Shown here piece after piece: positions 1,252 to 29,433 of a stretch of 64,000 nucleotides of DNA. The notes under the pieces were generated by a model, which was not told the DNA's origin, did not search any database, and saw only the letters and a list, made by a program, of their open reading frames with translations. The stretch is from an uncultured Bacteriovoracaceae bacterium (GTDB lineage: Bacteria; Bdellovibrionota; UBA2394): assembly GCA_964626465.1 (NCBI GenBank), contig CAZVFP010000001.1, positions 24,932-88,931 on the forward strand, written 5' to 3'. The translations under genes were made by a program, and so were the position numbers. The number at the start of each line of letters is the position of its first letter. The first letter of the stretch is position 1.

Positions 1252-1713
1252 ATGATCTTGGATATTTGGAAGAGTTTGTCGAGAGTTCCGTTTGGTCAGT
1301 GGCTTTTTAATTTGTTCATTTCTTGGAAAATTCCCTATACGGGGTCTGTATCGCCTAAAGTCGTAGAGTTTGAAGCAGGGCGATCTCGAGTGAAGATGCG
1401 TGATCGGCGCAGAATCCGCAATCATCTTGATTGTATTCATGCCATTGCATTGATGAATCTTGGAGAATTTACAACCGGACTTGCGGTAGTCTCTACCCTT
1501 TCAGAAAAATTTAGATATATTCTTGTGCATCTAGAAATTGATTTTCTCAAAAAAGCACGGGGCACAGTGGAAGCAAACGCAGTCTTCTCGAGAGCTGAGC
1601 CCTTCACTGAACAGAAGACCTATGTTGTAGAATCTCAAATAAAAAATGGGGCCGGCGAATGCGTCGCGAAAGTTCGCGCTCATTGGTTGGTGGGGCCGAA
1701 AGACATCGCATGA
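1252..1713 (+). CDS. DUF4442 / YiiD C-terminal-like hotdog-fold thioesterase family protein.
   Basis: The stretch IRNHLDCIHAIALMNLGEFTTGLA...LKKARGTVEA matches the YiiD C-terminal hotdog pattern. It overlaps the next gene by 4 bp (ATGA). Confidence 0.7.
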   Translation: MILDIWKSLSRVPFGQWLFNLFISWKIPYTGSVSPKVVEFEAGRSRVKMRDRRRIRNHLDCIHAIALMNLGEFTTGLAVVSTLSEKFRYILVHLEIDFLKKARGTVEANAVFSRAEPFTEQKTYVVESQIKNGAGECVAKVRAHWLVGPKDIA

Positions 1714-2699
1714 GCACGGCACTGACTGAAAAATTAAAAATTGAAGTGCCCATTATTTGTGGGGCGATGTACCCCTGCAGCAATCCAGAGCTTGTTGCCG
1801 CGGTTTCCGAAGCTGGAGCGATCGGCGTTATTCAGCCCCTCTCGCTGACATATGTTTGGGGATATGATTTTCGTGCGGGTGTGAAGAAGATAAAAGGGCT
1901 CACAAAAAAACCATTTGGAATGAATGTTCTGCTCGAAAAAACATCGAGATCTTATGAAAAAAGAATGCGTGAATGGGTTGATATCGCACTTGAAGAAGGA
2001 TGTCGATTTTTTGTGACGGCGCTTGGAAATCCTCGCGAGTTGTGTGGTCAAGTGAAGCCCCTGGGTGCTGTGGTTTTTCACAATGTGACCGAAAGAAAAT
2101 GGGCGCTTAAAGCATTAGAGAATGGAGTTGATGGATTAATCTGCGTGAACAATCGTGCAGGCGGACATGCGGGCACAGAATCTCCAGAAAATTTATTGCG
2201 AGATTTAAGTGACTTAAATGTTCCTCTTGTTTGTGCGGGAGGGATCGGCTCTGAAGATGAATTTCTGTCGGCGCTTCATAAAGGCTATTGTGGGGTTCAG
2301 ATGGGGACTCGTTTCATCGCAACAGTCGAATGCCAGGCCCACGATGATTATAAGCAAGCCATCGTTCGAGCGCACGAGAGTGATATCGTACTGACAGAGC
2401 GTGTTACGGGAATTCCTTTGTCGGTTATTCGAACTCCCTATGTGGATCAGGTTGGCACAAAGGCTGGTTCAGTGGCGCGGTTTTTGCTGAAGCATCGTCG
2501 GACAAAGGAGTGGATGAGATTATTCTATAACTTGCGCGCGCTATTTCAGATGAAGCAGAGCGCGCGCAAGGGGCTTTCAACAAAGGATTATTGGCAGGCC
2601 GGCAAAAGTGTTGAACATATCGAGCGTATTGAAACTGTAAAAGAGATTGTGGCGCGATTCGCAAAAACTGCGGACCCTACTTTTCAGCCCCGTTCTTAG
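1710..2699 (+). CDS. NMO-family flavin oxidoreductase (nitronate monooxygenase / FabK-like enoyl reductase).
   Basis: MSTALTEKLKIEVPIICGAMY, GGIGSEDEF and GVQMGTRF are typical NMO/2-nitropropane dioxygenase TIM-barrel motifs. The internal Met start at 1710 is chosen because it gives a 4-bp overlap with the upstream gene. Confidence 0.8.
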   Translation: MSTALTEKLKIEVPIICGAMYPCSNPELVAAVSEAGAIGVIQPLSLTYVWGYDFRAGVKKIKGLTKKPFGMNVLLEKTSRSYEKRMREWVDIALEEGCRFFVTALGNPRELCGQVKPLGAVVFHNVTERKWALKALENGVDGLICVNNRAGGHAGTESPENLLRDLSDLNVPLVCAGGIGSEDEFLSALHKGYCGVQMGTRFIATVECQAHDDYKQAIVRAHESDIVLTERVTGIPLSVIRTPYVDQVGTKAGSVARFLLKHRRTKEWMRLFYNLRALFQMKQSARKGLSTKDYWQAGKSVEHIERIETVKEIVARFAKTADPTFQPRS

Positions 2700-3751
2700 T
2701 GAGTCTTTATTTCCGTTTCGAGCTGTGCAATCCATTGGTTCAGAAGCGCAAGTACTTCTGAATTTGTTGCGACTCGAGACTCCCGACTGTCAATGAAACG
2801 AAAAAGCAATTCCTTCGTTTCTTTTTCGAGCCTTGGATTTTGAAAGAGGACGGTCTCCGAAACGAGCTCCTTCATCCGCGCAAGACTTGGCACAATTTCT
2901 TTTATTGATTCAAATCCGGAATAGATTTCTGGCCGACGAGCGCTCATGACACAGGCCTCAAATAACATTATTCCGATCGCGTAGTAATCAAAACTCGAAG
3001 TGATTCCCAAATCTGCGTAGTCTTGAAGTGGATAATACGGGCTGGTCAAAATCAAGTCGGTGTCGCCCCACTTCTTCCACATTTTAGAAATCATCTTGGG
3101 CGATCGAATTCCTGTAGGGTCAATGACCACCACTTTTTTCAGAGAGCTTCCGGAAATATCCTCAAGCATAATATTGGGCGGAGCTAAGTCCATGGCGACA
3201 AGGCCATTGTGATGTAGCGCATCTAAGAATTCGAGCACGACTTTCATGTATCCGATGTATCGAATCAAAAAATTTAGGCGTGCCATTTCAGTTTGAGATG
3301 GATCCATGTGGATACTGTAAAAGTCATCTAATTCTACTCGAAGGGTTTTGCCTCGTACCAGGTCCATTGAGATTCCATGAGTTAATCGATTCTCAGCAGA
3401 TCCTCCGCGTGGAAGAGACAGAGCGAGGGTTCCTCGAAATTGCACAAGATGGGGAGGTCTAATCGTCGCAAGACTGCGATAGATGCGTTCTTCTTGTGCA
3501 AGAGTGCTCGATCTTTCATCGAGGGGAACCTTGAAGGCTCTCACGTTATCTGGATTCTTTCGATCTGAAATTTTGTAGACCCGGCCAAAACCGCCAGTAC
3601 CAATTAAAGGTCCAACGCTCCACAATTGGTCATCTGATTGCAGGCCGAATTTTGCTCTTTCGACGACGCGACCTGTGAAACGACGCAAGTCAGCCCAACA
3701 AGTAAAATTTCCTGTAAGCAATAAGAAACTGATCGTTAACTGGGTCAGCAT
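2696..3751 (-). CDS. Hanks-type (eukaryotic-like) protein kinase domain protein with N-terminal signal-peptide-like segment.
   Basis: Kinase subdomains read in order: Gly-loop IGTGGFGRVYK; VAIK-like RAFKV; conserved Glu in EERIYRSL; catalytic loop HNGLVAMDLAPPN (D and N retained; Lys of HRDLKPEN replaced by Ala, DLAxxN-like); DFG-like DPTG; DxxxxG as DYYAIG. N-terminus MLTQLTISFLLLTGNFTCWA is hydrophobic. Confidence 0.7.
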   Translation of the reverse strand: MLTQLTISFLLLTGNFTCWADLRRFTGRVVERAKFGLQSDDQLWSVGPLIGTGGFGRVYKISDRKNPDNVRAFKVPLDERSSTLAQEERIYRSLATIRPPHLVQFRGTLALSLPRGGSAENRLTHGISMDLVRGKTLRVELDDFYSIHMDPSQTEMARLNFLIRYIGYMKVVLEFLDALHHNGLVAMDLAPPNIMLEDISGSSLKKVVVIDPTGIRSPKMISKMWKKWGDTDLILTSPYYPLQDYADLGITSSFDYYAIGIMLFEACVMSARRPEIYSGFESIKEIVPSLARMKELVSETVLFQNPRLEKETKELLFRFIDSRESRVATNSEVLALLNQWIAQLETEIKTH

Positions 3752-3885
3752 CGTGAAACTCGAGCTTTTATAACAGAAGCGGAAACTTTTGTATTCTCAA
3801 ATGCTAAGTTGTTGATTCGATTTGATTTATCACAGCCTCAACTGGCTACTGTTTAATCAAGGACCCTCTGATATATTGGCTTTGA

Positions 3886-4677
3886 GTGCGGTATCTCTCC
3901 TATTTACATTTTCTTCGGGTTTCTTTGCTGGTGATTGGACTGTCTGTTTTCTTTGGGAGCGTCCGCCTGGTTTTTGGCGCGTCGAAGCGAGAGTGTTCAA
4001 TATCTTTAGGGAGGCTCATCGTCGAGTCCGATGCGTCTTTCAGTGACCCATTCGATTTTGCGATAAGAAAAACTTCGAAGGGCTTTTTTATTCCTGCTCG
4101 TGTTTCTCTGAAATCCCTTGCCGATGGCGATGAAATGGAGACTGCAAAGATATATCAATTTTTTCTTGAGCAGACTCGAGCCCAATCTCTGCTTCTTTTG
4201 CCGAGTTGGAAAGGCATTGCGATTCCAGCATTCGATGGAGTCGTGTTCGATGCTGATGGAAAAGTTCGCTATAATATTCAAATTAAATATATTTCGATAG
4301 GGGGCATTGAGTCTGCTCTCCGTTCAATAATGAATAAGGTAAACAAGTGGTCCGCAAAGGATGAAACCTGGCGGAAGCACTTGAATCATCTGAAATCGTC
4401 TGTGCAGACACAGTGGCTGAAAAATATTCTGCCGGTTTTTGGAGTCGGATCTAAGCCACTTCGAAAAACCCAGATCGTTATCCGAATTAAGGGCAATCCA
4501 GCGGAGTCAGATGTTAAAAGCCTTGTTGAAGAAATTCGTTCTAAGTGGAAAGTCTGGCCGTTGAGGCTGGATTCGGTGGTTTTATTGACCTCGACACAAG
4601 CGATTTCAGTCACTGAGCATGATGTGCATAAGAAGGATTGGGATTCGATTGGTCTTTTACCTGCAGATCGTCGCTGA
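3886..4677 (+). CDS. Hypothetical protein with N-terminal hydrophobic segment.
   Basis: 263-aa ORF. N-terminal LLVIGLSVFFGSV segment. No recognisable motif. Confidence 0.5.
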   Translation: MRYLSYLHFLRVSLLVIGLSVFFGSVRLVFGASKRECSISLGRLIVESDASFSDPFDFAIRKTSKGFFIPARVSLKSLADGDEMETAKIYQFFLEQTRAQSLLLLPSWKGIAIPAFDGVVFDADGKVRYNIQIKYISIGGIESALRSIMNKVNKWSAKDETWRKHLNHLKSSVQTQWLKNILPVFGVGSKPLRKTQIVIRIKGNPAESDVKSLVEEIRSKWKVWPLRLDSVVLLTSTQAISVTEHDVHKKDWDSIGLLPADRR

Positions 4678-5358: not shown

Positions 5359-6108
5359 TTAGCGATGCGCGACGGCCGGCAAATCGATTTCGGTTTCTTT
5401 ATTGCCGCATGTGGGATGTTTAAAGCCATTCGCTTCCTCACTTGCTTTTAGATAAATGATATTATCATCCTTGTTGGGGCTGACGCCGGCAGGAACATAA
5501 TCCAAACCTAAGTTTTTGCGCATTTTCCAGGCAATATTGTGGTCTGCACATGAGGTGTCACCGCTGACGCCCAAAGCTCCGAGCAATTGGCCTTTCGCAT
5601 TATAAAGAGCAAGGCCACCACCAAATACATTCACGCCGCCAATGCGTTTTCCGACAAGAGGATCGGCCGCCTGACCAAATTTTTCTGCTTTTCCGGCGTA
5701 TGCAGCTTCAGTGTTGACGGGATTGCTGAGTTGAAGGCCATAGAGGCTGCCACCAGGTTGCACTGCTGAAAATAGATTTGCCGTCGAGAGTGCAAGTTTG
5801 GGGAGACTGAATGCATTCGCAGTATTCGCTTTCTGGGCAGAGATAACACGGCTCCCAGGCCATTGGTCGCCACGGTCGCTTCCGGTAAATACAACAGAAC
5901 AAACAATTCCGTCTCGGTTCACAATGCTCGCCCACATGTCTAGATTTAGACCGCCGTTATTTTCAGCTCGCGCTTTGGAGAGCGCTGCTTTCACCTGTTT
6001 CCAGCCAGGAAGTGTTGAGCAATCACCGGCTTCAGTGCTGGCATTCGAAATAATTGACAAAGTAAGACATAACGCAAAAATAATATTTTTTCTCATGTGA
6101 CGAAACAT
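5359..6108 (-). CDS. Secreted GlcG/HbpS-like (DUF336) putative heme-binding protein.
   Basis: Signal peptide, then GGVNVFGGGLALY...GALGVSGDTSCADHNIA, which resembles the DUF336 GxxGVSG core. Confidence 0.65.
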   Translation of the reverse strand: MFRHMRKNIIFALCLTLSIISNASTEAGDCSTLPGWKQVKAALSKARAENNGGLNLDMWASIVNRDGIVCSVVFTGSDRGDQWPGSRVISAQKANTANAFSLPKLALSTANLFSAVQPGGSLYGLQLSNPVNTEAAYAGKAEKFGQAADPLVGKRIGGVNVFGGGLALYNAKGQLLGALGVSGDTSCADHNIAWKMRKNLGLDYVPAGVSPNKDDNIIYLKASEEANGFKHPTCGNKETEIDLPAVAHR

Positions 6109-6311
6109 GCGCGAACAGCAAAAAAATGAAAAGCTCTAATCTTTGATTTTTTGCTTTTGAAATACGTCTCTCAACGGCTGAGTTAAATAATTCTCTCCAG
6201 TCTTCTGTCTCTGTTACTTTTTCAGCGTCAGTGAGTGCTCGTGTCTCTGCTGGCTGATCTGGATTTTTGGTTCCAGTTTGCAAGACTTTTAAAATCTGCT
6301 TCGATAAATGC

Positions 6312-7142
6312 ATGAACTTTAAATTGCGAATGCTGTTGCCTTTGTTTCTGGTGGTGATCTCTTTTATTCAAGTGGGCTGCGCTGTCTCTCCTCTTGGACG
6401 GAGGCAAATCAAACTGATGCCTGCGGGTCAAATGGATGCAATGGGTATTCAGGCATTTAATGAGATGAAGTTGAAGGCACCACAAGATAAAAATCCTCAG
6501 ATGAATTCATATATCCGATGTGTGGCAAATGCGCTCTTAGATGTATTGCCGGAAGAGACTGGCGCCATTTCTGCGGAGGGTTGGGAAATCGTGGTCTTCG
6601 ATGATAAGACGGCCAATGCTTTTGCTCTGCCTGGAAAAAAAATAGGAGTGCATTCTGGAATTTTGCCTGTTGCGCATACTCCGGACGCGCTGGCCGCTGT
6701 GATTGGGCATGAGATCGGCCATGTCATCGCCGGGCATGGTAATGAACGTGTTTCGGAGGCATTTATTGCACAGGGCGGGCTCGCGGTTGTGGGCTCGATT
6801 CTGAAAGATAAGGAAAGCCCTCGTTATAATTTGCTGATGGGTGCTCTTGGTCTTGGCGCTCAGTTCGGTGTCTTGCTTCCGCATAGCAGAACCCAAGAGT
6901 CAGAAGCCGATATCATCGGTTTAAGATTGATGGCGAGAGCTGGGTTTAATCCTGATGATAGTGTGACTTTGTGGCAGAATATGGAGAAGACGTCTGGCAC
7001 CTCGGGTCCGGAATTTTTGTCGACCCATCCGGCGCACGGAACTCGGATTGAAAATCTGAGAAAAAATATTCCGCTTGTTTCTTCATTTTATCTTGAGCGC
7101 AAAGCAAAAAATACGTTGCCTCACTGTAGTTATCGAAATTGA
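6312..7142 (+). CDS. M48-family zinc metallopeptidase, probable lipoprotein.
   Basis: HEIGH zinc motif in IGHEIGHVIAGH. Downstream ESEAD Glu. N-terminal signal ending VGC (lipobox-like). Start chosen at MNFKLRMLLPLFLVV. Confidence 0.85.
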   Translation: MNFKLRMLLPLFLVVISFIQVGCAVSPLGRRQIKLMPAGQMDAMGIQAFNEMKLKAPQDKNPQMNSYIRCVANALLDVLPEETGAISAEGWEIVVFDDKTANAFALPGKKIGVHSGILPVAHTPDALAAVIGHEIGHVIAGHGNERVSEAFIAQGGLAVVGSILKDKESPRYNLLMGALGLGAQFGVLLPHSRTQESEADIIGLRLMARAGFNPDDSVTLWQNMEKTSGTSGPEFLSTHPAHGTRIENLRKNIPLVSSFYLERKAKNTLPHCSYRN

Positions 7143-11818: not shown

Positions 11819-14800
11819 ATGTTGTCGTCATTGGTTTTTTCCCCGCTTAATCGAGTTAAATCCGTAGTTTATGCCTCCACGTTGGTTCTAGGACTCTGCC
11901 AGTCCGCCATTGGTGGAACCCTGACATATGATGTCAGTGGTCCAAATGGTGAGAATGGGCGCAATGGGCGCAACTATTCAGGTTCTAGTGCGGGGCACGG
12001 CAGAGATGGCGGTAATGCCGGTCCGGCAAGCAATGGTTCTGATGCTGGATCTGTTGATCTCTCGATGCAGGATCATTTCAATGAGGGGCAGGCTGGCCCA
12101 GCATCCGTCGTGATTCGATCCCGGATTCTTCCTTCAAATGGCGTTCTTCAGGAGTCGTCCGTGACTGAAAGGCTCTCGCCTGCAAGTCCACGAATTCGAA
12201 TTATTGCCCGCGGTGGAAAAGGTGGAGATGGTGGCCATGGTGGAAATGGTGAAGACGGAGGCCGAGGTCGCGACGGCACTGATGCAACTCGCTCCTCTCG
12301 TGGCACTGATGGAGGCCGTGGATATGATGGAGGAGATGGCGGAAATGGCACGCCCGGTGGAGATGGTGGCCGAGGCGGTCGCGTTGTTGTTCGGTTAGCT
12401 GCGACTGATTTGCATCTGGGATTTCTGCTCGAGACAATTGATGTCAACGGCGGACGAGGCGGTGCTGAGGGTGAAAATGGATCTGCAGGAAGCGGTGGCG
12501 CCGGGGGCTCTGGGGGAAGCTCGACGAGCTGGCAAGAAAAGACGGGTGAAAGAAGTATTTCTGTTTCTAACGGTGATGGATCTTTCAGTCACAGACGAGA
12601 GGATGTTTTTTCAACGAGATCGAATCCTGGCGGCAGTTCCGGGGCAAGTGGATCTGACGGTCGAAGTGGCCGTGGTGAAACTCATGCAGGAATGCCTGGA
12701 CCTGATGGATCTTTTGAATTTTTGGTGACGGAGAATAATGGACGAGTATCGAAGTATCATTCTGTCTCAGACCTTCGACTGATTTCCTACGAACTAATAG
12801 AGACTGACGAAGTGTCGAGAGATGGCATCATTGAGCCGAGTGAAAATTTGACCATTAGAAATATTGTCATTCAAAATACTGGAGAGATGCCAAGTCCCGC
12901 AGGCAAGGCTGCTGTTCTCATTGGGTTGCCCCAAGCGGATTGGCTCAAATTGCCAGCGCGAATTTCTATTCCGAGTCTAAAACATAATCAGACATTCACG
13001 ATTGTCGAAGATTATAAAATTCAAATAGCGCCTCTGACCGCCTTCCAACAAAATCGTCGGTGGGCACGTTCTGAAAGGATTGATCCGCAAGCATCAGTCA
13101 CAAGAGTTTATTACGATTATAAAAATTTTTCTCGTCAGCAGACAATTACGATCACTCTTCCCATCGAAATCTCAGAAATTAAGGTGCCAGAGACCTTGGC
13201 ACCAGGTGAACGTTCGGCCATTTCATTTCGAGTGAAAAATATTTCATCGAAACCTCTTGGATCGAGCACGGACGGAAAACGCGCTGTTGAAGTTCTTTTG
13301 GCGCAAAAATCTCAAACAGAACTTCCATTCCAATTTGAAGGTCTCAACGGTGAGGTTCAATTGACAAATGGTTTTGTGGAAAAGATTTTGTCTCTTAATC
13401 CAAACGACGAAACAGTGGTTGAAGGATATTTGCGAGTTCCTGAATCCATAGAACCCTATTCCTCGGTCGATTTTTCGGCGAGTTTGAAATTTCCGCAGCT
13501 TGGCAGTTTGGATGAGGCCCGCATTGTTCAAGAAAATACGACCCGGTTGCGCATTGGTCAGAAATATCGGTATACCCCCGGTGCGGATATTTTAATGATT
13601 GTGAACCACAATACTGAGCGAAATGAGATTCTTGCGTGGACCAATTTATTCAAGAAGCTGGGTTTGAAATTCGATATTTGGGATACCAATTACTATGGTT
13701 ATCTCAATCTAAAGAGAGCGCTGGATGATGATGGTTCGACGCTGATGAAACTTTATGCGCATAAAACCGTGATTCTTTTGAATAATAAATCAGATCGAGA
13801 GAAGTCGAAGATGGGATCCGATGCTCTTGACGCCGAAGAATTTGTCGAGGCGGCCTCGAAACGTCTCATGAACTTCTATGTGATTGGAGGGCAAGGTGGT
13901 GTCGATTTTCTGAAATGGCTGATGACGACGGATCCTGATTCGCAGGGACTTATCGAAAATCCATCAGATCTCGGTCAGTTGAAATCGACGCCGGCCTCTT
14001 TTGTTCGACACATCGATGTGAAGAAACCAAATGAGAAACGCTGGCTGAAGCGAAGCACGACGCTTTCTTCAAGCCTCTATGAGGCTTATCCGGATCAGCG
14101 CTTCGTTTTTGAAGGCCTGACGAATCGTGTCAACCATGCCTACGATCAGGTTGTGATCCGGACAACGATTGCTCCGGCCCGGGGACGTGCCTCATATCTG
14201 TCTCAGCCCGATGAAGAAGTCCATACGGAGGCGTTCGTCAATAGTGAAGCCAATATCAGGGCACTTCTCTTGAATTTGCCGATGAAGAAAAAGCTAAATT
14301 TGTTGGGCAAACTTAATGCCGTGCATCTGGAATCTGTGCCGCATGTCAGTGAATACCTTTATCAGGCTGTTTTGCACGATATAGTTGAAGAGATCGATCT
14401 TTGGCGAAGAGCTCCAAAGGCCTTTCATAAGACGAATCGTGTCGCAATGAATATGCAATATTTTTTGTCGTATGTTGATTCGCGATTTCGCTTTGCTCAA
14501 AATGATGTGAGCGATCAGATGAAGCTCTTGATCGCGTCTTTAGCGGCTATCGATTGTTATTTAGATGCCATACCCGATTCCGTACTCGAAGATTATCTTC
14601 GCGCAGATTTCGATCTTTGGATGGACACTCAGTGGCCAAAGATTTTTGAAGGTAATCATGGAACTGCAAAAAAACTTTTTGATGCCAAGAAAATGGCTCT
14701 GCGAAAAAGTATAAAAGCTCGTGGAAAGGTTCTCGTTGGGCTTGACGATGTCGAGGTGCTCAGACATTTGCTGGTGTTCCCAGCAAAACGAGAGTTGAAG

Positions 14801-14848
14801 ACGACGGACGAAATCTTGAAATACGGTAATTTGGTGGATAAGCCATGA
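11819..14848 (+). CDS. Large secreted protein (1009 aa) with N-terminal Gly/Asp-rich nonapeptide repeat block and an unknown ~700-aa C-terminal region.
   Basis: Signal peptide VYASTLVLGLCQSAIG. Period-9 repeats GGKGGDGGH / GGNGEDGGR / GYDGGDGGN / GTPGGDGGR. A second Gly/Ser-rich tract follows. Confidence 0.8.
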   Translation: MLSSLVFSPLNRVKSVVYASTLVLGLCQSAIGGTLTYDVSGPNGENGRNGRNYSGSSAGHGRDGGNAGPASNGSDAGSVDLSMQDHFNEGQAGPASVVIRSRILPSNGVLQESSVTERLSPASPRIRIIARGGKGGDGGHGGNGEDGGRGRDGTDATRSSRGTDGGRGYDGGDGGNGTPGGDGGRGGRVVVRLAATDLHLGFLLETIDVNGGRGGAEGENGSAGSGGAGGSGGSSTSWQEKTGERSISVSNGDGSFSHRREDVFSTRSNPGGSSGASGSDGRSGRGETHAGMPGPDGSFEFLVTENNGRVSKYHSVSDLRLISYELIETDEVSRDGIIEPSENLTIRNIVIQNTGEMPSPAGKAAVLIGLPQADWLKLPARISIPSLKHNQTFTIVEDYKIQIAPLTAFQQNRRWARSERIDPQASVTRVYYDYKNFSRQQTITITLPIEISEIKVPETLAPGERSAISFRVKNISSKPLGSSTDGKRAVEVLLAQKSQTELPFQFEGLNGEVQLTNGFVEKILSLNPNDETVVEGYLRVPESIEPYSSVDFSASLKFPQLGSLDEARIVQENTTRLRIGQKYRYTPGADILMIVNHNTERNEILAWTNLFKKLGLKFDIWDTNYYGYLNLKRALDDDGSTLMKLYAHKTVILLNNKSDREKSKMGSDALDAEEFVEAASKRLMNFYVIGGQGGVDFLKWLMTTDPDSQGLIENPSDLGQLKSTPASFVRHIDVKKPNEKRWLKRSTTLSSSLYEAYPDQRFVFEGLTNRVNHAYDQVVIRTTIAPARGRASYLSQPDEEVHTEAFVNSEANIRALLLNLPMKKKLNLLGKLNAVHLESVPHVSEYLYQAVLHDIVEEIDLWRRAPKAFHKTNRVAMNMQYFLSYVDSRFRFAQNDVSDQMKLLIASLAAIDCYLDAIPDSVLEDYLRADFDLWMDTQWPKIFEGNHGTAKKLFDAKKMALRKSIKARGKVLVGLDDVEVLRHLLVFPAKRELKTTDEILKYGNLVDKP
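12200..12560 (+). repeat. Coding low-complexity repeat: period-27-nt (nonapeptide) Gly/Asp-rich repeats followed by a Gly/Ser tract, inside the 1009-aa gene.
   Basis: Repeated ggtggagatggtggcc... units. They generate spurious antisense ORFs. Confidence 0.6.
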
Positions 14849-15915: not shown

Positions 15916-17538
15916 ATGCGTCAGTTTCTTTTTTCAGTGATCTTCTTATTTTCTGTATCAGCCTTTGGTGCTGAGATTCCATCAGGAAAACCCGCCAACT
16001 TCTGTCGCTTTTTTCTTGGATCTCTGAATGTGGAAAATGCGCATCCTCCGTATATGACGATTCCAGATCGGGTTGCTGAATATACGCCGATCAAGCACCT
16101 GGGATCAATTCGTGCGCGGGGATTGGCTGGCTCTCCGAATCGTCGTCTGCCCAATTGGACGCGAGAAAAAGTAGAGCTCAAGCTTGGGCAGTTACAGACT
16201 CTTTTGGGGCTCTGGCCTGAGAGGCCTGCGGTGCTTGGAATTGTGGAAGTGCGAGATGCGAGTATCACTGGCAAAATTGCAACTGCTCTTGGTTACAAGG
16301 AGCCGATCGTGAGTGCGAGCAGCAATGAGCGCGGAATGGATGTAGGATTGCTTCTTAATCCATCGCCGGAGCTGGAAATCGTGAGCACGCAAGAGGTGCC
16401 GCTGACTGGCCCAGAGTTTGCCAACTACAGAACAAGGAATTTGTTGGTCGTAAGTGTCTCCGTCGCACAACGTTTTTTACTTCACTTTGTTGTGGCTCAC
16501 TGGCCGTCGCAGGGAGGGCCGACCGAAGCTCGTGTTGAGGCGGCTCGTCAGACTCGAGCGCTGGTGGGCAAACTGAAGTCTGATTATCCTGGATCCGAAG
16601 CCATCGTCATGGGAGATTTTAATACTTTGGATTCTGAAAAAGATATTCTTGGTCGTCACCCTTTTCGAGATATTTTGCTTGAAGCAAATGGGGCTGCAAC
16701 TCTGGTGGATGCGTTTACGTTGGAATCAATGAGAGCTCCAGGAGCCCATCCAGAGGGAACTTACTACTACGCGCCGAATGATGAGTGGAATCGCCTTGAT
16801 CGATTTTTCGTGACGGATGGATTGCTTCGAAATCGCCCTAACGGACTTCGGCTTGTGAGCAAGACTTATCGCGTGAATGCTCCCGAGGCGGTGACTCACG
16901 AAGTGAAGCGCCGAGACGGATCAACAATTCGCGTACCTTTGAGATACGATCCAGAGGCAACAACGGCAGCGCGTGCAGGCTTTACGGATCATTTTGGAAT
17001 TTCTGTTGGAATTGAAGCGCATTGGCAGGATTCTGGCTTGGAGCGTGTGCGATTTCTTTTAGATCAAGACATTTTGCTGGCCAGATCGGTTATCCTCTTT
17101 CCGAAATCGCCAAAGGGGGCTCGTCGCTTCATCTCGTGGTCTGAGTATGTGGCAGAAAAAGATAAAATCGGCGTGGACGGTGCCAAGTTTGGAGCATTTG
17201 AGATTCGTGAGGGCGAGAGTTTCGTCCGATTGCGAGACGGAGATGATGGAAAAAATTGGTACTTCAATGATTTGAGATACGATAGCGAAGGCGGCGATAT
17301 TGAAAAAATCCGCGGTCCAAGGTGGGACGAATTTGTGGCTGCACTTGCAACGCCGGAATCCGCAAGGCGCGTTCTTCTGCATATTCCCGACTACAGAACA
17401 CATCGACCTGAGTCAGTCTATCAACTGCTGCTGGATTTGCGTGAAAAAGGAATCATTGCCGAATTGCCGCTTCTCGAAAATATAGAGCAGGCGCCTTCGA
17501 CAATGCCGGTCGATTTAGCTGAAACGAAGGCGAAATAG
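15916..17538 (+). CDS. Secreted endonuclease/exonuclease/phosphatase (EEP) family protein with extra C-terminal domain.
   Basis: Signal peptide. EEP motifs NVEN, GIVEV, VVAHW, MGDFN, DHFGI. A ~180-aa C-terminal extension follows. Confidence 0.8.
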   Translation: MRQFLFSVIFLFSVSAFGAEIPSGKPANFCRFFLGSLNVENAHPPYMTIPDRVAEYTPIKHLGSIRARGLAGSPNRRLPNWTREKVELKLGQLQTLLGLWPERPAVLGIVEVRDASITGKIATALGYKEPIVSASSNERGMDVGLLLNPSPELEIVSTQEVPLTGPEFANYRTRNLLVVSVSVAQRFLLHFVVAHWPSQGGPTEARVEAARQTRALVGKLKSDYPGSEAIVMGDFNTLDSEKDILGRHPFRDILLEANGAATLVDAFTLESMRAPGAHPEGTYYYAPNDEWNRLDRFFVTDGLLRNRPNGLRLVSKTYRVNAPEAVTHEVKRRDGSTIRVPLRYDPEATTAARAGFTDHFGISVGIEAHWQDSGLERVRFLLDQDILLARSVILFPKSPKGARRFISWSEYVAEKDKIGVDGAKFGAFEIREGESFVRLRDGDDGKNWYFNDLRYDSEGGDIEKIRGPRWDEFVAALATPESARRVLLHIPDYRTHRPESVYQLLLDLREKGIIAELPLLENIEQAPSTMPVDLAETKAK

Positions 17539-17569
17539 TTGCTAAACTTGGCACGCAACTTGCTTTAAA

Positions 17570-18661
17570 TTGAGGACGATGCTCGCGTATTTATCGGCCG
17601 TGTATTTTTCAGTTGTGTCTCAGACAAATGTTTTGGCTGAGACGCTTCCGACCTGCTCAACAAATGCGTCGATCGTTCAGCAAACCAACAAAATTTTTGA
17701 GAAATCGGCAAAGAAACTGGAAAATCGGCGAGTGTTTCTTCCGCTGAGCCAGATGCCTTTGTCCCTTAATTCATTGGATGCCGTAGCGTTCAATCCCAGC
17801 GATCGCTCTCGCTTGACTCAGATCTCTCTCATTCTGCAGATTTCGGTCATCCACGTGAGTGGAGAAGGTTCAAGAAGTCTCAGTGACGTGACGATTTCGC
17901 GCCAACGTTCTGATTTTATGACGTCGGTATCGCAAGAGATGAAGCAAAAAAAATTTTCAGTGAATTCGAATTTGCCACCCATTTTACCGCACCAACTTTT
18001 TCCTCTTGAGGCAGCGTTTAGCTCGACCAATCAAGCAGCTTATGCGAGTGCTTTTGTTGCCCCGGGCCGGGTGCTCGGCGAGGGGCGATTTACTTCCCTC
18101 ACTCCCCTCCTTCTGTTCAAAGATTTTTCGGATAAAACAGGTATCTTAAAAGAGATGATCAATGCTCTCATTTGGAAGCAGAGAGCTCAGAAGGGTTTGA
18201 TGGATCCATGGTCTGTGACTTTTCATTTTCAAAATCCTGACGATTATGAATTCTTGAGAGAGAATGAGCAGGAAGAGTTTTTGCTGCGGCCGACGCATTA
18301 TGTGCCAAAACTCTTCGAGAGAAGCCAACGATTTTATGATCAACTGGCGATTCAGTTTGATGCGCAGTGGCTGCTCTTTGAGAACTCCGAGTATTGGGGA
18401 CTCTCTGGGACTGTTCGAAGGGAGGCCCTTGAGAATCTGCGTGCAATTTTGGGAAGTCCTTATGAGGGTGGCGTGGATGGATCAGTGGGACTCGTCAAGC
18501 TGGTCGGAGATATTTCATCTCGAATTGGAGCATTGGCGTCTAGGCCTGATGGATTCAAAGATCCTCGTCTCGATGGCCAGCTTCGTGAGTTCGAAAGCTG
18601 GCTCCGCCAGCGAAAGGCATCTGTAGATGCCGCTTATGCGTGGCTTCAAAAACAGAATTAA
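17570..18661 (+). CDS. Secreted hypothetical protein.
   Basis: 363-aa ORF. Signal peptide ending VLAETLP. Confidence 0.6.
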   Translation: MRTMLAYLSAVYFSVVSQTNVLAETLPTCSTNASIVQQTNKIFEKSAKKLENRRVFLPLSQMPLSLNSLDAVAFNPSDRSRLTQISLILQISVIHVSGEGSRSLSDVTISRQRSDFMTSVSQEMKQKKFSVNSNLPPILPHQLFPLEAAFSSTNQAAYASAFVAPGRVLGEGRFTSLTPLLLFKDFSDKTGILKEMINALIWKQRAQKGLMDPWSVTFHFQNPDDYEFLRENEQEEFLLRPTHYVPKLFERSQRFYDQLAIQFDAQWLLFENSEYWGLSGTVRREALENLRAILGSPYEGGVDGSVGLVKLVGDISSRIGALASRPDGFKDPRLDGQLREFESWLRQRKASVDAAYAWLQKQN

Positions 18662-18734
18662 TTCATAGGCTTTGCTCGCCGACTTGTGTTCCTTCGGGCT
18701 TAGTGTTGCAATGGTAGTCTTGGGGGAACAGTTT

Positions 18735-19406
18735 ATGAGGTTATATGCGCTTATTTTGTCGTTTTTTTTATCCTGTCTCGGGCTCTTCAGAAACGAATTT
18801 GACGTTCTAGCCAGCGTGAATCCGAAGGAATCAAAACGCAATTTTAAGCCTGTGAATTCTCCCTCTCCTTCGCCTGAGGCGAGTGATAAGCCGTCGTCGG
18901 GTGGGGTGACAAAAACAGAGACCGGACTCCCCGGCACTAAATCTACTTTTAATTTTGTGGATGGTGGCGATCGTCGGGCTTTGGAATATTCGGTTCAGGT
19001 GGGTTGCCAAACCGTGACTGGAAGTAGTTTGGCCAATCGTTATGAACTGGAAGTTTGTATTAGCCCAGATTTCAAGACACGAGTTTTTTCTTTGAAAGTT
19101 TCTGTTCAGTGTGATGACGAGAAAGATCCGTCGAAGGTGATTGCAGCAATGGGTCTTTTGTCGCGTCGAGCAGAACATTATTGTGTGACTGAAAAGGCTC
19201 ACAACTTAAGCTATAAAGAATCCTGCGGGTATGAGCCCATGGCAGCCTGTGGGGGTGATTGGTACAGCACTAAAGGAACGAATTGCCAGCGAGAGAATAT
19301 CAAATATTGTTGTAGTCCTGGTGTCGATTGTAGTCGCTATCAGAAGGAGTTCGATCTGAATCGAATTATTAAGTATTCGGAAGAACCCATATGGCCATCG
19401 TTTTAG
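18735..19406 (+). CDS. Cys-rich small secreted protein/lipoprotein, hypothetical.
   Basis: Start chosen at MRLYALILSFFLSCLG, which is preceded by a GGGGGA Shine-Dalgarno-like run. About 12 Cys in the mature part. Confidence 0.5.
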   Translation: MRLYALILSFFLSCLGLFRNEFDVLASVNPKESKRNFKPVNSPSPSPEASDKPSSGGVTKTETGLPGTKSTFNFVDGGDRRALEYSVQVGCQTVTGSSLANRYELEVCISPDFKTRVFSLKVSVQCDDEKDPSKVIAAMGLLSRRAEHYCVTEKAHNLSYKESCGYEPMAACGGDWYSTKGTNCQRENIKYCCSPGVDCSRYQKEFDLNRIIKYSEEPIWPSF

Positions 19407-20827
19407 GTTCTAGAAATATCAGACGAGCTCTGGCGATTTTTGCGCTATCTTTTTTGACCTGTGGATGTAAGGCGATTCCTGACGTCGCGTTGGAAGAGAA
19501 TATCGATAAGACAAAAAATCCGGCGAGTTCTTTACCTCAACCGACGAGTCTTGATCAGGCAAATCAGAAGACTCAAAACCAGCCCGAGACCTCTCCTTCT
19601 CCGTCTCCATCTCCGGCAAAGCCGCCTGTGGCGGCTTCTCCTGCGAAACCGGCCCCCGTACCTGCCGCCCCGGTTATTCCTCCTATGCCGCCACCGGTAC
19701 CGGCGCCAGTTCCTCCTCCTGTAAATCCTCCACCAGCGACGCCGACGGCACCCCCGCCAGCTGCGCCAACTCCAACAGCTCCAGTGAATGCGCCGATCGA
19801 TCCGTCATGGCCAGATCCAGCAAAGGATTTGCTCATTGTTTATAATTCAAAGTCCAAAGACAGTGTAGATCTGCTCAATTACTATAGAACGCAGAGAGCT
19901 GCAGGCATTGAGAAGGCCCCCACATTTGCGATAGCGTTTCCAACGTGGTGTGAAGTTGGATCTGATGGCTGCTATTCACCAGATTCCGAGTTAGTTCCCG
20001 GATGGCCAGTTGACTATGCTCAGATTGAAGTTGTTAAGCCAATTCTCGATCATCTGAAAACTCGCCCTACTATAAAACATGTTTTACTCCTCTATGGAAT
20101 CCCCACGAGAAGTGTTAATTTTTCGGAATCGATTTCAAGCCGAATCAGTGGCCCCTCCAATACGAAAGTAACAACGATCAATATGGGTTCCGCAGAATCT
20201 ACGAAAGCCTATATTGACAAGCTCGTGCGGATGAAAAATTCGATGCCACAAACGATGGGGCCGATCATTTCGTCCAAGTCGAGCCCTTTGCGGGGCGTTG
20301 TCTATGGATTCGAAGATGCGGGGTCGAGGTATGGTGGAATTCCTTGGAACGGGCAACAGGGAGAGCTTCGTCGTGATGCGGTTCTCAGTGTTAATCCATC
20401 GGCGATTATTGATTTTAGACCTTTTGGAGCTCAACGAATCAGCACCCTCAAAGATGTTGCAGGTTTTGTCACCTGGGGAGCAAATGGAGGCCGAGAACCG
20501 ACTTACTCAGGCGATGGATCAATTAAGTTTTCCGGAAATTCATCTTGGTGGGTGTTGAACACGATTGAGTCTTTCAATGGTCAGCAACGTGTTGCTTGGC
20601 AGGGCTCATATGAGCGCTGGTTTGCAAAGAATGCATTTGGCTCTGTGAATTATGAGAATACGCCCGTTGCTGCGACGGCGCATACCACCGAGCCTAGCCT
20701 TCTTGGTGTTGCGGACGCGAGTCTCTATGCATGTTGGGAATCTGGAAAACTTTGGATTGATTGCGCAGCATCAGCCACGCGTACGCCAAGCTACTTAAAT
20801 CTGGGTGACCCTTATATCTCTCGATAG
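19391..20827 (+). CDS. Lipoprotein with Pro/Ala-rich linker and a ~330-aa C-terminal domain of unknown function.
   Basis: N-terminus LAIFALSFLTCGC (lipobox-like). The PSPSPSPAKPPVAASPAKPAPVP... tract is about 70 aa. Confidence 0.65.
   Translation: MAIVLGSRNIRRALAIFALSFLTCGCKAIPDVALEENIDKTKNPASSLPQPTSLDQANQKTQNQPETSPSPSPSPAKPPVAASPAKPAPVPAAPVIPPMPPPVPAPVPPPVNPPPATPTAPPPAAPTPTAPVNAPIDPSWPDPAKDLLIVYNSKSKDSVDLLNYYRTQRAAGIEKAPTFAIAFPTWCEVGSDGCYSPDSELVPGWPVDYAQIEVVKPILDHLKTRPTIKHVLLLYGIPTRSVNFSESISSRISGPSNTKVTTINMGSAESTKAYIDKLVRMKNSMPQTMGPIISSKSSPLRGVVYGFEDAGSRYGGIPWNGQQGELRRDAVLSVNPSAIIDFRPFGAQRISTLKDVAGFVTWGANGGREPTYSGDGSIKFSGNSSWWVLNTIESFNGQQRVAWQGSYERWFAKNAFGSVNYENTPVAATAHTTEPSLLGVADASLYACWESGKLWIDCAASATRTPSYLNLGDPYISR
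19590..19800 (+). repeat. Coding Pro/Ala-rich low-complexity linker.
   Basis: ccg/cct/gcg-rich tract encoding PSPSPSPAKPP... Confidence 0.5.
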
Positions 20828-22260
20828 GTGTTGTTGATCTCGAGAGCTTCAAAGAAAATATCTTGAGTCACAATCGAGTCTGCATCGAGCGAAAGCGCAA
20901 GAGTCTGTGGCCGATAACCCGGCGCAGCAAAGTTAAATTCATAGCTTCCAGCGATGAGGGGTTTAAAGAAAATTCCATTTTTGCTGGCTCTTGGTTTTTC
21001 ATCTTTGTATGCCAACCCGTTAATCGAAACGAATCCGTCGATTGGCTGACCCGTCTTTGCGTCTAACATTCGTCCTCTAAGCTGAGGCCCCGCGACCATA
21101 CGATTGAGAAGATAATTCCATCCGGCTCGTTGCCCGATCACTGTTTTGTCTCGCCATTCGTCATAAGACGGCTGGAATCCTTGATCCGAGCCATTTACTT
21201 CGATGACATAAGCAAGCGTATTCACTTCATTGTACATCCACGAAATATCATCTCCGTCGACCGGATATAAAATTTCCCATCCAGTTCCGTAACGATAGGT
21301 TCCTCTGCCATCATCTGTTTTTAGTTTTTTCGCGAGCGACGCGCCGATTTCTCTCACGATCATATTTTCAGGAGTTAAATGATCCTGGCAACCATAGGGA
21401 GCGATCACCAGCTCGCTATAGGAATGATAAGAAATATCCATTGCGAAGTTTTTATCTTTCACGAATTTCATCATTGAAATCGTCTCGGGTTCACTGGCGG
21501 CCTTTTCGCCACGATAGGTTTGATTTCTTTGACTTCCGCTGCTTCCACCGCAGGTTCCCCATTCATAGGGATAGTTTCGATTAAGATCGACGCCCCATGT
21601 CGATTCAGAATCTCCCCGAGCATTCTTTCGCCACCAATTATCCTTTGTCCAAGCAATATCATTTCCATCAGGATTGAATTGCGGGAGTATCCAGATGGCC
21701 AGATTTTTGAGCCAGACATTCACCCAGGGTGTTTCTGGATTGTCGTAGTTTGTGACGAGATAGTTCATGATGTCAGTAGTGATTTCCGTTGTCATGATTT
21801 CGCGAGCGTGATGCATGCCATTGAAGAGGATGGTTGGCTTATAGTCGATATTGTCGGGTGTCGAAATGCGAACTGCAAAAATCGGTTTGCCACGCAGACT
21901 ATTTCCAATTGATTCAACGTGGACTAATTCCGGATACTTCTCTTGCAAGGCTCGAATATTGGAGACAATTTTAGCATATGTCTGGTAGCGGGGATCGATG
22001 CCGCCAATCTGTTCACGGATGATTTCGACACTGTAACCACTGTCTTTCAATAGTTCGAAATATTCGGGGGATCCAACAATATCGAGTGTATTTTTTTCAA
22101 GATCTTGGCCTGCAATATCAATAGAACCAGGAATGCTTTGGATGCGCATTTCAGAATCTCTCAGGTTCAGGCGGATCAACACTTTAGGGTCTTCGATTTC
22201 ACTCTGAGCGACGGTGATTTGCGAGACGAACAGCAAAGCGATAGCATAAATATATTTCAT
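20812..22260 (-). CDS. Secreted M14-family zinc carboxypeptidase with C-terminal carboxypeptidase-regulatory-like domain.
   Basis: Signal peptide. NGMHHAREIMT (HxxE zinc ligand). DLNRNYPYEWG, SYHSYSELV. Confidence 0.9.
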   Translation of the reverse strand: MKYIYAIALLFVSQITVAQSEIEDPKVLIRLNLRDSEMRIQSIPGSIDIAGQDLEKNTLDIVGSPEYFELLKDSGYSVEIIREQIGGIDPRYQTYAKIVSNIRALQEKYPELVHVESIGNSLRGKPIFAVRISTPDNIDYKPTILFNGMHHAREIMTTEITTDIMNYLVTNYDNPETPWVNVWLKNLAIWILPQFNPDGNDIAWTKDNWWRKNARGDSESTWGVDLNRNYPYEWGTCGGSSGSQRNQTYRGEKAASEPETISMMKFVKDKNFAMDISYHSYSELVIAPYGCQDHLTPENMIVREIGASLAKKLKTDDGRGTYRYGTGWEILYPVDGDDISWMYNEVNTLAYVIEVNGSDQGFQPSYDEWRDKTVIGQRAGWNYLLNRMVAGPQLRGRMLDAKTGQPIDGFVSINGLAYKDEKPRASKNGIFFKPLIAGSYEFNFAAPGYRPQTLALSLDADSIVTQDIFFEALEINNTYREI

Positions 22261-27651: not shown

Positions 27652-29433
27652 ATGCTCGCGGTCGTTCCACGACGGATTAAAATTCGTGTCAGCGTTTTGT
27701 CAGTTGTCGCCGCAGCCATCATCTTTGCGCCGTGGTCGTTTTCTCAGTCGATCGTTTTCAATCTTGTGTGGACTTTATTGAGTGTCTTGTTTGGGCTCTA
27801 TATGCTCTGGTGTTATTGGCCAAAACTCAATTGGGGAATCGGTCGTGAAATATCAGGATCCCTCGCGATTGTGGCTGGCCAGAAATTCTCATTAACTTTT
27901 GATGATGGCCCTACACCGGGGCTCACTGAAAAAATTTTGGATATTCTTACTGCCACAAATATAAGGGCTTCGTTCTTTGTCTTGCTTCCAAAAGCGAGAG
28001 AGAATCCTGACCTTATTCGACGCATCGTCAACGAGGGTCATGAGCTCGGCCTGCACGGTGAAGATCATCGTTCTCCATTCTTTAGAACGCCTCAAGATCT
28101 CTTTTTGTCTCTGTCGCGCGCGAAGGCTGAGCTAGAAAATATAGCCGGTCGATCCGTAGATCTGTATCGACCGAGTCATGGTTGGAAAAATATAGCTCTG
28201 CTGATCGCTGTGAGACGTGCTTCTCTAAAAATCGTGCAATGGGATTTGGGCGTTTGGGATACAGCCAATCCGGATCTCAATACTTTATTTGATCGATTGA
28301 AACTCTCTTCTTCCGCTTCACATGAAAACAATAGAAAGACAATTTTACTCCATGATGGTAAAAATGATGACCCTCAGATGCCCGCTCATGGTGTCGTTCT
28401 CTTAAGTGCTCTCGAGAAGTGGTTGCGTTTTGAGAATTCTCATCGCAGTGATCAATCTAATTCGACTACTCGCGTTGCATTTGGGGGATGGCTTGGTTTC
28501 TTCGTCGTGGTGGCCCTTTCAATCTTGGCGGTTCGTCACATTAACTTTCAAGCTTTTTTAATTTCGCTTAAATCACAATCGTTATTAGCTCTTTTTTGTG
28601 TTTGTGCTGGAAATCTAGTCGCGACTTTCTTCCAAGGGTTGCGTTTTTTTTGGCTTTTACCAAATTCAAATATTTCAGCGTTGCGACAGGTGGGGCTCCA
28701 ATTCGTTGTGAATTCAGGAAATATCTTGCTTCCCTTTCGGGCGAGCGAAGTCATTCGACCTCTATTCTTAAAAAAATGGGAAGATAGAATTTCAATTAAG
28801 GAGCTGATCCTCTGGACCGTGGTCGATAAATTCCTAGAGGCTCTGAGCTTTTTACCATTTCTGCTTGTAGCTTCAGAAATGTTTTCAATTTCTAGGATAT
28901 GGCTTTTCGTCGCCATTGCTCTCGGTGGAGCGGGAATTTTCTTCTGGCGCAGGAGGTGGCCGCATATTCAGCCTCGTTCTTTAATTCTTGCAACGCTGGC
29001 GTCTTGCGCTATGTGGACAGCCTATGTTTTTTCGTTTGGAGTTCTGTTTTCTTCTTGGAAGTTGGGTTTTGGGGCAACCATTGCGACCACTCTTGGATCT
29101 GTGATTCCTGCGGGCCCTGCGAGTATTGGAACGTTTGAAGCGGCGCTTACCTGGTTTCTTGAAAGCTTTAAGCAGATGCCTGCCTCTGAAGCTTTGGCAG
29201 TGGCCGTTGCGGCGCATGGAAGTCTGATCTTTTCAAGTTTAATGGTTGGGGTGCCGCTGATCATGACTTGGGGCTGGCCGAAGCGACATGGTGAGATGAT
29301 TTCAAAAGTTCGAGTGCCACTTCGTTATAAGTTCACCAATACTTTGGTCTATATCTGCGCGTTTATTATGATTGTTTTTTCGTTTGCCATTTGGATTCCA
29401 GAATCGCGAATGCCCAAGGTGAATAGGAATTAA
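27652..29433 (+). CDS. Polysaccharide deacetylase (NodB homology domain) fused to a C-terminal lysyl-PG-synthase-like (MprF/UPF0104-type) transmembrane domain.
   Basis: NodB motifs TFDDGP and HELGLHGEDH, LYRPSHGW. N-terminal TM helices and about 8 C-terminal TM helices. Confidence 0.75.
   Translation: MLAVVPRRIKIRVSVLSVVAAAIIFAPWSFSQSIVFNLVWTLLSVLFGLYMLWCYWPKLNWGIGREISGSLAIVAGQKFSLTFDDGPTPGLTEKILDILTATNIRASFFVLLPKARENPDLIRRIVNEGHELGLHGEDHRSPFFRTPQDLFLSLSRAKAELENIAGRSVDLYRPSHGWKNIALLIAVRRASLKIVQWDLGVWDTANPDLNTLFDRLKLSSSASHENNRKTILLHDGKNDDPQMPAHGVVLLSALEKWLRFENSHRSDQSNSTTRVAFGGWLGFFVVVALSILAVRHINFQAFLISLKSQSLLALFCVCAGNLVATFFQGLRFFWLLPNSNISALRQVGLQFVVNSGNILLPFRASEVIRPLFLKKWEDRISIKELILWTVVDKFLEALSFLPFLLVASEMFSISRIWLFVAIALGGAGIFFWRRRWPHIQPRSLILATLASCAMWTAYVFSFGVLFSSWKLGFGATIATTLGSVIPAGPASIGTFEAALTWFLESFKQMPASEALAVAVAAHGSLIFSSLMVGVPLIMTWGWPKRHGEMISKVRVPLRYKFTNTLVYICAFIMIVFSFAIWIPESRMPKVNRN

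Follow-up and report, generated by a model that had tools for sequence, protein, structure and literature searches.

The kinases to which a new bacterial Hanks-type kinase has to be compared are the PknB-type Ser/Thr kinases (PF00069; M. tuberculosis PknB, PDB 1mru), PknG of Mycobacterium/Corynebacterium (PDB 4y0x, 7mxk), the eIF2alpha kinases, the tyrosine kinases, the small-molecule kinases and the bacterial effector kinases. All eukaryotic protein kinases (ePKs) have an Arg or Lys in their catalytic loop (the equivalent of PKA K168), which is apparently required for protein-kinase activity, and the ePK activation segment and G-H-I helices serve the binding of protein substrates (PMC4702295). 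The small-molecule 'eukaryotic-like kinases' (ELKs) are generally without this Arg/Lys (PMC4702295), and the translocated effector kinases of bacteria are delivered into the eukaryotic cytosol through secretion systems of type III or IV (T3SS/T4SS; PMC9950578). The gene analyzed here lies on a 64,000-nucleotide stretch of DNA from an uncultured Bacteriovoracaceae bacterium (contig CAZVFP010000001.1), and this whole stretch is referred to as the window. Its product, hereafter the query, is a real but very divergent bacterial kinase with an established Hanks-type/ePK fold.

Compared with PknB-type kinases, the query differs by AMD in place of HRD, Ala two residues after the catalytic Asp (D+2), DPT in place of DFG and the lack of an APE Glu. 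It has a short N-terminal hydrophobic leader but neither a C-terminal transmembrane segment nor PASTA/sensor domains. It is a stand-alone, single-domain kinase with a Hanks/PknB-like fold. Ordinary Hanks kinases scored 280–340 bits on the same models on which the query scored approximately 46 bits, i.e., the query was approximately 5–7 times lower. PknG, in contrast, has rubredoxin and TPR domains but no hydrophobic leader, and its DFG and catalytic-loop Lys are intact. The closest solved relatives, both by profile (PKR, E=2.3e-11) and by Foldseek, were the eIF2alpha kinases (PKR, PERK, HRI, GCN2), which share a beta4-beta5 insert with the query. However, these are eukaryotic, dimerisation-activated RD kinases with canonical HRDLKPxN and DFG, and the query is barely closer to them than to many other kinases. 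The ELKs (APH, choline kinase, MTRK, KdoK, RIO/Bud32-type) share with the query a D-x-x-x-x-N loop without Lys/Arg (PMC4702295), but the query has the ePK activation segment and G-H-I helices and shows neither an ELK insert ahead of the catalytic loop nor a C-terminal helical subdomain. The effector kinases (YpkA/YopO, OspG/NleH, LegK1-4/7, SteC, XopC2, HopBF1, VopG) are likewise divergent and ePK-like, often fast-evolving and lineage-restricted, and come from cell-attacking bacteria; however, no sequence relationship to them was found, and no secretion-system context was recognisable in the window.

The overall best explanation, to which we give about an even chance, is that the query is a divergent Ser/Thr-type Hanks kinase that is predicted to be active and to be tethered to the membrane on its cytoplasmic side. 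The gene was defined from the list of open reading frames (ORFs) as follows.

2696..3751, minus strand: kinase gene, 351 codons plus stop, with an ATG start at 3751

The initial annotation had placed the gene at exactly these positions (minus strand, 351 aa, ATG). The N-terminus of the kinase (MLTQLTISFLLLTGNFTCWADLRRF) is fixed, as the frame is closed by a TGA 15 codons upstream of the ATG and contains no alternative start in between. The TTG codons downstream (codons 11, 22 and 43) were considered as starts that would remove the leader. They were rejected because the starts of the query and of its full-length homologue P0004 are fixed by upstream stop codons, and the protein-level conservation of the leader (~30% identity) rules them out. 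An identical protein without a name, P0001, is present in the NCBI collection, where it lies on a 457-kb contig. On comparing the gene with its orthologue at locus L001, the nonsynonymous and synonymous rates were 0.209 (dN) and 0.80 (dS), respectively, and the dN/dS of 0.26 shows that the kinase is a real gene under selection. A scan of 2500-4000 for sigma-70 promoters and terminators returned only chance-level matches. Separately, the sequence GTTATAAAA was observed at 3767-3775 (minus strand), approximately 16 nt before the start codon of the query, and again at positions 5-13 of L084, approximately 5 nt before the start codon of P0004. This shared sequence may be a -10-like box, which would imply very short mRNA leaders or leaderless mRNAs; at this site, the strict sigma-70 scan gave no match.

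The kinase identity proposed by the initial annotation was borne out at a level well above chance by the Pfam match, the AlphaFold2 model and the Foldseek comparison. The Pfam Pkinase profile (PF00069) matched the query over profile positions 3-249 of 263 with E=3.5e-9 and 36.9 bits, above the gathering score of 31.7, which was also exceeded by the full-length homologues P0004 (61 bits) and P0152 (34.5 bits). In contrast, the PK_Tyr_Ser-Thr profile reached 17.1 bits with the query, under its threshold, and the profile of the YrbL atypical-kinase family matched only weakly and in part. The AlphaFold2 model, which was built from a 50-sequence alignment, had a mean predicted local distance difference test (pLDDT) score of 90.3 and a predicted template modelling score (pTM) of 0.87, and residues 41-351 scored 83-98. 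A second, independent AlphaFold2 model of P0004 (31% identical to the query) had a pLDDT of 89.6 and the same architecture, including the low-confidence leader. The domain is bilobal and has the F-helix Asp and the G-H-I helices of ePKs.

2699..3631, minus strand: ePK-fold kinase domain, residues 41-351

The best Foldseek matches in the PDB were PKR, PknG, PknI and CaMKII (probability 1.0), and PknB was also among the top structural matches. None of the APH, CotH, Fam20, ChoK or RIO-type structures was near the top of the fold matches; the APH/CotH-type or non-kinase fold that had been named beforehand as the outcome speaking against a Hanks-type kinase was, accordingly, not what structure prediction returned.

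The query belongs to a very small, fast-evolving family of Bdellovibrionota-type predatory bacteria. A HMMER search of 1.84e9 cluster representatives yielded four family sequences only, namely, the query itself, P0002 (68% identical to the query, a fragment ended by the contig end), P0004 (full-length, 31% identical, E=3.7e-38) and P0006 (a C-terminal fragment that is the near-identical counterpart of P0152). The next matches were generic kinases with E-values of 1e-9 or weaker. The profile search added one full-length member, P0152. Thus, the family consists of three lineages (query/P0002, P0152/P0006 and P0004) among approximately 15 billion proteins (1.84e9 cluster representatives; 5.8e9 clusters). 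No relatives were found on the contigs of 185,579 species representatives or on viral contigs, and the family profile re-found only the P0152 contig among metagenome contigs. That contig has a G+C content of 45.8% and shares no other genes with the window. When family loci were compared by tblastx, only the kinase was common to them, the exception being L001, which also shares the adjoining nitronate monooxygenase (NMO) and DUF4442 genes with the window. Over window positions 1345-3451, protein identity to L001 was approximately 86-93% for DUF4442 and NMO and 67% for the adjacent kinase; evolutionary rates thus differ markedly inside one syntenic block. For NMO, dN was 0.035 and dN/dS was 0.06, and from the dN of 0.209 for the kinase it follows that the kinase is evolving approximately six times faster than its neighbour. 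An operon partner, a phosphatase or an FHA gene was not found near the family loci, and no second kinase was found in the 64-kb window. The YgiQ protein of the window had its best matches in Bacteriovoracaceae and other Bdellovibrionota metagenome-assembled genomes at no more than 79% identity, which indicates that the window comes from a poorly sampled lineage of predatory bacteria.

The active site was examined in an alignment of the family with 44 generic kinases and in a 50-sequence alignment. The following elements were located.

3584..3601, minus strand: Gly-rich ATP loop GTGGFG, residues 51-56, with GxGGxG in the full-length family members and the generic kinases
3527..3538, minus strand: beta3 AFKV with the ATP-anchoring Lys74, its column almost constant (at least 90%) across the 50-sequence alignment
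3485..3496, minus strand: alphaC segment QEER, residues 86-89, with E87 family-invariant and Y91 invariant at +4
3173..3199, minus strand: catalytic loop VAMDLAPPN, residues 185-193, aligned to VHRDLKPxN of generic kinases
3110..3121, minus strand: Mg-binding DPTG replacing DFG, residues 211-214, with the Asp conserved
3020..3046, minus strand: P+1/'APE' region TSPYYPLQD, residues 236-244, aligned to GTPxYMSPEQ, with P238, Y239 and D244 family-invariant
2771..2989, minus strand: C-lobe ePK elements from DYYAIG (residues 255-260) through the G-H-I helices to SRESRV (residues 322-327)

The nucleotide and metal ligands (Gly-loop, Lys74, Asn193 and Asp211), the catalytic Asp188 and the ePK C-lobe (Asp255, Arg326 and the G-I helices) are retained, and across the family the core catalytic set (GxGxxG, the Lys of beta3, the catalytic Asp and Asn, and the Asp that binds Mg) is conserved. 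The beta3 Lys motif reads RAFK, RVFK and RAFK across the full-length members. Asp255 was invariant in all 50 aligned kinases, Arg326 aligned to the Arg of subdomain XI, and AlphaFold2 predicted C-lobe helices at 253-271, 274-282, 290-299, 306-320 and 330-350. A pseudokinase was rejected: by the usual criterion (motif table, PMC7586955), it would have to lack at least one of the Lys of beta3, the catalytic Asp and the Asp of DFG, and K74, D188 and D211 are all present and conserved.

In the catalytic loop of the query, Asp188 and Asn193 are kept, while HR is changed to AM and the D+2 Lys to Ala190. The corresponding loops of the homologues are VAMDMNPKN (P0004) and IGIDISPSN (P0152). All family members carry replacements at these sites: HRD is A-M-D in the query, P0002 and P0004 and G-I-D in P0152, D+2 is A, A, N or S, and the DFG position reads DPT, DPS, DPA and DPA in the four family sequences that cover it. 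The APE Glu is absent, and the invariant Asp244 lies nearby. The motifs quoted by the initial annotation are all present (as GTGGFG, AFK, VAMDLAPPN, DPTG and DYYAIG), as is Arg326 of SRESRV, and the statement of that annotation that all core subdomains are readable stands for most of them, the exception being the alphaC Glu, for which the register is ambiguous. The canonical column falls on I90 in the phmmer and MAFFT alignments and on E88 in the profile-PKR alignment, whereas the family-invariant residue is E87. In PKA, Glu91 and Leu95 are spaced as Glu and +4. Because E87 and Y91 match this spacing, E87 is probably the partner of Lys74, given also its invariance, and Y91 would be the bulky residue of the regulatory spine. 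Tyr91 possibly offsets the small residues Ala186 and Pro212, which stand at the positions of the HRD His and the DFG Phe.

From this anatomy, the following mode of action is proposed. The kinase would bind Mg-ATP and move phosphate to a hydroxyl group, with Glu87 probably pairing with Lys74 and Tyr91 probably filling the regulatory spine. It would need no activation-loop phosphorylation because it is a non-RD kinase, having A-M-D for H-R-D. Given the lack of a catalytic-loop Lys/Arg and the Pro at the DFG Phe position, the protein is probably either a slow Ser/Thr protein kinase or one in which the substrate supplies or replaces the missing charge, and it would not be a tyrosine kinase. Finally, the 13-residue hydrophobic helix with an uncharged start and the basic helix that follows it most likely tether the protein to the cytoplasmic membrane, which is the weakest step of the proposal. 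The N-terminal elements are listed below.

3692..3751, minus strand: hydrophobic leader, residues 1-20 (MLTQLTISFLLLTGNFTCWA), including the family-conserved Cys18, aligned residue for residue with the homologues
3632..3691, minus strand: basic linker and second helix, residues 21-40 (DLRRFTGRVVERAKFGLQSD), with an AlphaFold2 helix at 16-33 of low confidence in the query and P0004

The counterparts of the leader are MFASLVISLVVLAGDSSCFS in P0004 and MFATLTLQFLLLTQAMPCAR in P0152 when the latter is read from an internal GTG. For the comparison of N-termini, P0152 was taken from GTG codon 50, as its annotated start adds 49 non-conserved residues; the three full-length N-termini then align from Met1 (query, MLTQLTISFLLLTGNFTCWADL; P0004, MFASLVISLVVLAGDSSCFSQL; P0152 from GTG-50, MFATLTLQFLLLTQAMPCARDL). 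The start codons are unambiguous in two of these three members (query and P0004, by upstream stops). The public gene call for P0152 (L082 8001-9203, 400 aa) is probably 49 codons too long, and GTG-50 restores the family N-terminus.

We consider it slightly favoured that the kinase domain is cytoplasmic and membrane-tethered; a predicted position on the ATP-containing side, with the leader membrane-associated or uncleaved, has roughly one chance in two. The rival model, which was that of the initial annotation, takes residues 1 to ~20 as a cleaved general secretory (Sec) signal and proposes an exported kinase that acts on prey or host proteins in an ATP-containing compartment. It is possible but doubtful. 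A lack of a positive n-region and basic residues near the cleavage site disfavour Sec export, and the periplasm is without ATP. The stretch before the hydrophobic core is free of Lys and Arg in every member (0 in the query, P0004 and P0152 from GTG-50), whereas the net charge over the 18 residues past Cys18 is +3 in the query, +1 in P0004 and +1 in P0152, with RR at 23-24 in the query. A basic flank on the C-terminal side only would fit an N-out/C-in orientation. Among the strongly hydrophobic N-termini of the window, nearly all have at least one Lys or Arg before the core, and their peak 10-residue Kyte-Doolittle values are 2.14-3.20; the kinase has the lowest peak, 1.99. The charge pattern of the kinase (uncharged start, then basic) recurs in two of them, at 39059-40648 and 48117-48848, and these look like the first transmembrane helices of ABC-transporter subunits, as suggested by the adjacent ABC genes.

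The cleavage sites required by Sec export were also compared. The query offers CWA|D, P0004 CFS|Q and P0152 TQA|M as candidates, but these do not share one aligned position; the position of P0152 that aligns to the candidate site has Arg at -1, and in the query RR would stand at +3/+4. Moreover, the conserved Cys18 would go with the discarded leader, and Sec by itself leads no further than the ATP-free periplasm. The effector kinases known from bacteria use T3SS/T4SS and not Sec leaders (PMC9950578). In literature searches, neither a secreted kinase of Bdellovibrio nor a Hanks kinase with a signal peptide was found to be reported. Two other signals were considered and rejected. For a lipoprotein signal cleaved by signal peptidase II, the lipobox [LVI][ASTVI][GAS]-C is lacking, residues -3 to -1 of Cys18 being N-F-T, D-S-S and A-M-P. 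For a twin-arginine translocation signal, the RR at 23-24 is not followed by a hydrophobic region and is not positionally conserved.

Several observations weigh against the cytoplasmic, tethered placement and speak for export. The conserved core (residues 2-13, ~12-13 long) is by its length nearer the h-region of a Sec signal (~7-15 residues) than a membrane span, and G14-N15, at which the helix breaks in both models, comes directly after it. A transmembrane helix was expected to have at least ~19 residues, a Kyte-Doolittle mean above ~1.6 and positive-inside flanks. The 19-residue mean of the query, 1.14, is under this usual threshold, the means for P0004 and P0152 being 1.84 and 1.57, and a polar N15, D15 or Q14 lies inside the would-be span. 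Over 11 residues, the means of the three N-termini are 1.87, 2.86 and 1.99. The candidate cleavage sites carry plausible small residues. The leader helix (2-13) has a pLDDT of ~60 and residues 1-40 of the query score 58-66; in neither of the two models are residues 1-40 packed onto the kinase domain (pLDDT 58-73 over query and P0004). In addition, a secreted predation protein would be in keeping with the fast evolution of the kinase relative to its neighbour, with its occurrence as a lone domain for which no sensor or partner genes recur across loci, and with the many exported hydrolases near it in a Bdellovibrionota-like genome.

A second alternative, which is compatible with either localisation, is that the query is an ePK-fold enzyme with a non-protein substrate (small molecule, lipid or glycan), an ATPase or a largely inactive scaffold. 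The reason for proposing it is the loss of Lys/Arg from the catalytic loop, of His-Arg from HRD and of Phe-Gly from DFG; it is unlikely. The catalytic-loop Lys/Arg of ePKs is missing from DLAPPN (query and P0002) and DISPSN (P0152), and the sole Lys in a catalytic loop of the family is at D+4 of P0004 (DMNPKN). Under the rule that all ePKs carry this residue (PMC4702295), which here counts against a protein kinase, the query may act on something other than protein or may have next to no activity. The rarity of these changes points in the same direction. For the 146 nearest generic kinases, the counts were as follows: D+2 is Lys in 142, His precedes the catalytic Asp in ~98%, DFG is exact in 126 and DP-x occurs in one; the catalytic-loop Lys/Arg is missing in only 4, and none combines the replacements of HRD, the D+2 Lys and DFG. 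The partial YrbL match, though weak, is also on this side. However, the beta3 Lys, catalytic Asp, Mg-binding Asp and Asn193 are conserved under purifying selection, the activation segment and G-H-I helices specific to ePKs are present, and neither the structural additions of ELKs nor an APH, ChoK or RIO structure among the top fold matches was found. The missing Lys/Arg makes the family atypical members of the Hanks superfamily and not non-members. Its most unusual feature, as far as motifs and predicted structure indicate, is an ePK fold (activation segment and G-H-I helices) joined with an ELK-like catalytic loop.

As judged from the sequences, the novelty lies in a tiny, fast-evolving Hanks variant that has a conserved uncharged hydrophobic leader and keeps its ATP/Mg and catalytic ligands while the HRD His-Arg, the loop Lys/Arg and the DFG Phe-Gly are lost. 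If the divergent Ser/Thr-type kinase favoured here is active, it would be a natural counter-example to the Lys/Arg catalytic-loop rule for ePK-fold protein kinases, with an active site that works with Ala, Met and Pro at the HRD His, HRD Arg and DFG Phe and for which Tyr91 may compensate. If it is exported, protein phosphorylation would be added to a predator repertoire that so far consists mainly of hydrolases, and if export into prey is the true reading, this would be the first Hanks-fold kinase effector of bacterium-on-bacterium predation bearing a Sec-type leader. The combined proposal, that predatory Bdellovibrionota export ePK kinases via an uncharged leader and that these phosphorylate prey proteins or envelope molecules without a catalytic-loop Lys/Arg, is decidedly improbable. 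If the protein is neither active nor exported, it would be another divergent orphan Hanks kinase.

The DLAxxN loop had also been taken by the initial annotation as tyrosine-kinase-like, so a Tyr-specific or Tyr-kinase-like Hanks kinase had to be weighed. In Ser/Thr kinases the catalytic loop is DLKPxN, with Pro at D+3, and in Src-type kinases it is DLRAAN; the P+1 loop of tyrosine kinases is P-[IV]-[KR]-W-[MT]-A-P-E. In the tyrosine-kinase signature HRDLAARN, the Arg hydrogen-bonds the hydroxyl of the substrate tyrosine (PMC4771162). The DLAPPN loop of the query is missing the Arg of the AAR motif, has no Arg/Lys at D+2 or D+4 and, as in Ser/Thr kinases, has Pro at D+3. Across the family, both D+2 (A/A/N/S) and D+4 (P/P/K/S) vary, and no tyrosine-kinase feature is conserved. 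The P+1 region of the query, LTSPYYPLQD (family [ST]-x-P-Y-[YF]), aligned to GTPxYMSPEQ of bacterial Ser/Thr kinases and is without the P-[IV]-[KR]-W motif. Pkinase beat PK_Tyr_Ser-Thr in all full-length members, and the best 60 PDB sequence matches were mostly Ser/Thr kinases, several being the dual-specificity DYRK2/3 and none a classical tyrosine kinase. PknB and PknG outranked any tyrosine kinase in the fold comparison, and no sequence-level affinity to the HRDLAARN/HRDLRAAN kinases was found. The tyrosine-kinase reading is not supported; it is largely refuted by these motif tests and is very improbable. DLAxxN alone is no sign of tyrosine-kinase character, the Arg being the diagnostic residue.

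Least probable of all is a stand-alone anti-phage defence kinase like PD-T4-6, Stk2 or MADS-Mad6, which is suggested by the single-gene organisation and by the best PADLOC (PD-T4-6, 45.9 bits) and NCBIfam (MAD6, 35 bits) matches, but the MAD6 cut-off is 460 bits, no defence genes are adjacent, no relatives were found on viral contigs, and with these PD-T4-6 models ordinary Hanks kinases reach 170-340 bits against 40-50 bits for the family, so the PD-T4-6 match is generic. The same score control also shows the distance of the family from ordinary bacterial kinases.

The neighbours of the kinase are metabolic genes or orphans, and its surroundings are rich in signal-peptide-bearing hydrolases and orphan proteins.

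1659-2699, plus strand: NMO gene, convergent with the kinase, the two genes overlapping by 4 nt at their stop codons (2696-2699)
5359-6108: HbpS-like protein, leader-bearing
6267-7142: M48 peptidase with a lipoprotein-like VGC, leader-bearing
15916-17538: endonuclease/exonuclease/phosphatase, leader-bearing
20812-22260: M14 carboxypeptidase, leader-bearing

No convincing terminator was found between the NMO and kinase genes. The leader-bearing hydrolases and orphans at 5359-7142 and 15916-22260 fit a secretome-rich predatory genome. Across a 134-bp intergenic region, and divergent from the kinase, lies a 263-aa orphan with a hydrophobic N-terminus (3886-4677, plus strand); neither Pfam nor PADLOC gave a match for it, and it was not observed beside other family members.

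Rfam and tRNA scans of the window returned nothing, and several large ORFs at 52513-58916 had no family match. One of these, a 908-aa orphan at 56190-58916 (minus strand), had no Pfam or NCBIfam match; its N-terminus, which contains NRGFSVPELMIAAGLSALIVGG, resembles a prepilin/pseudopilin-type cleavage and methylation motif, and the product may be a very large minor-pilin-like protein. In a 1009-aa ORF at 11819-14848 (plus strand), DUF7932 (residues 319-445) was the sole recognisable feature. Peptidoglycan deacetylases of the predatory lineage are reported to act on prey walls. A 593-aa protein at 27652-29433 (plus strand) has a polysaccharide deacetylase domain (78-192) fused to an LPG_synthase_TM-type membrane domain (280-531), an unusual combination for a genome of the predatory lineage.

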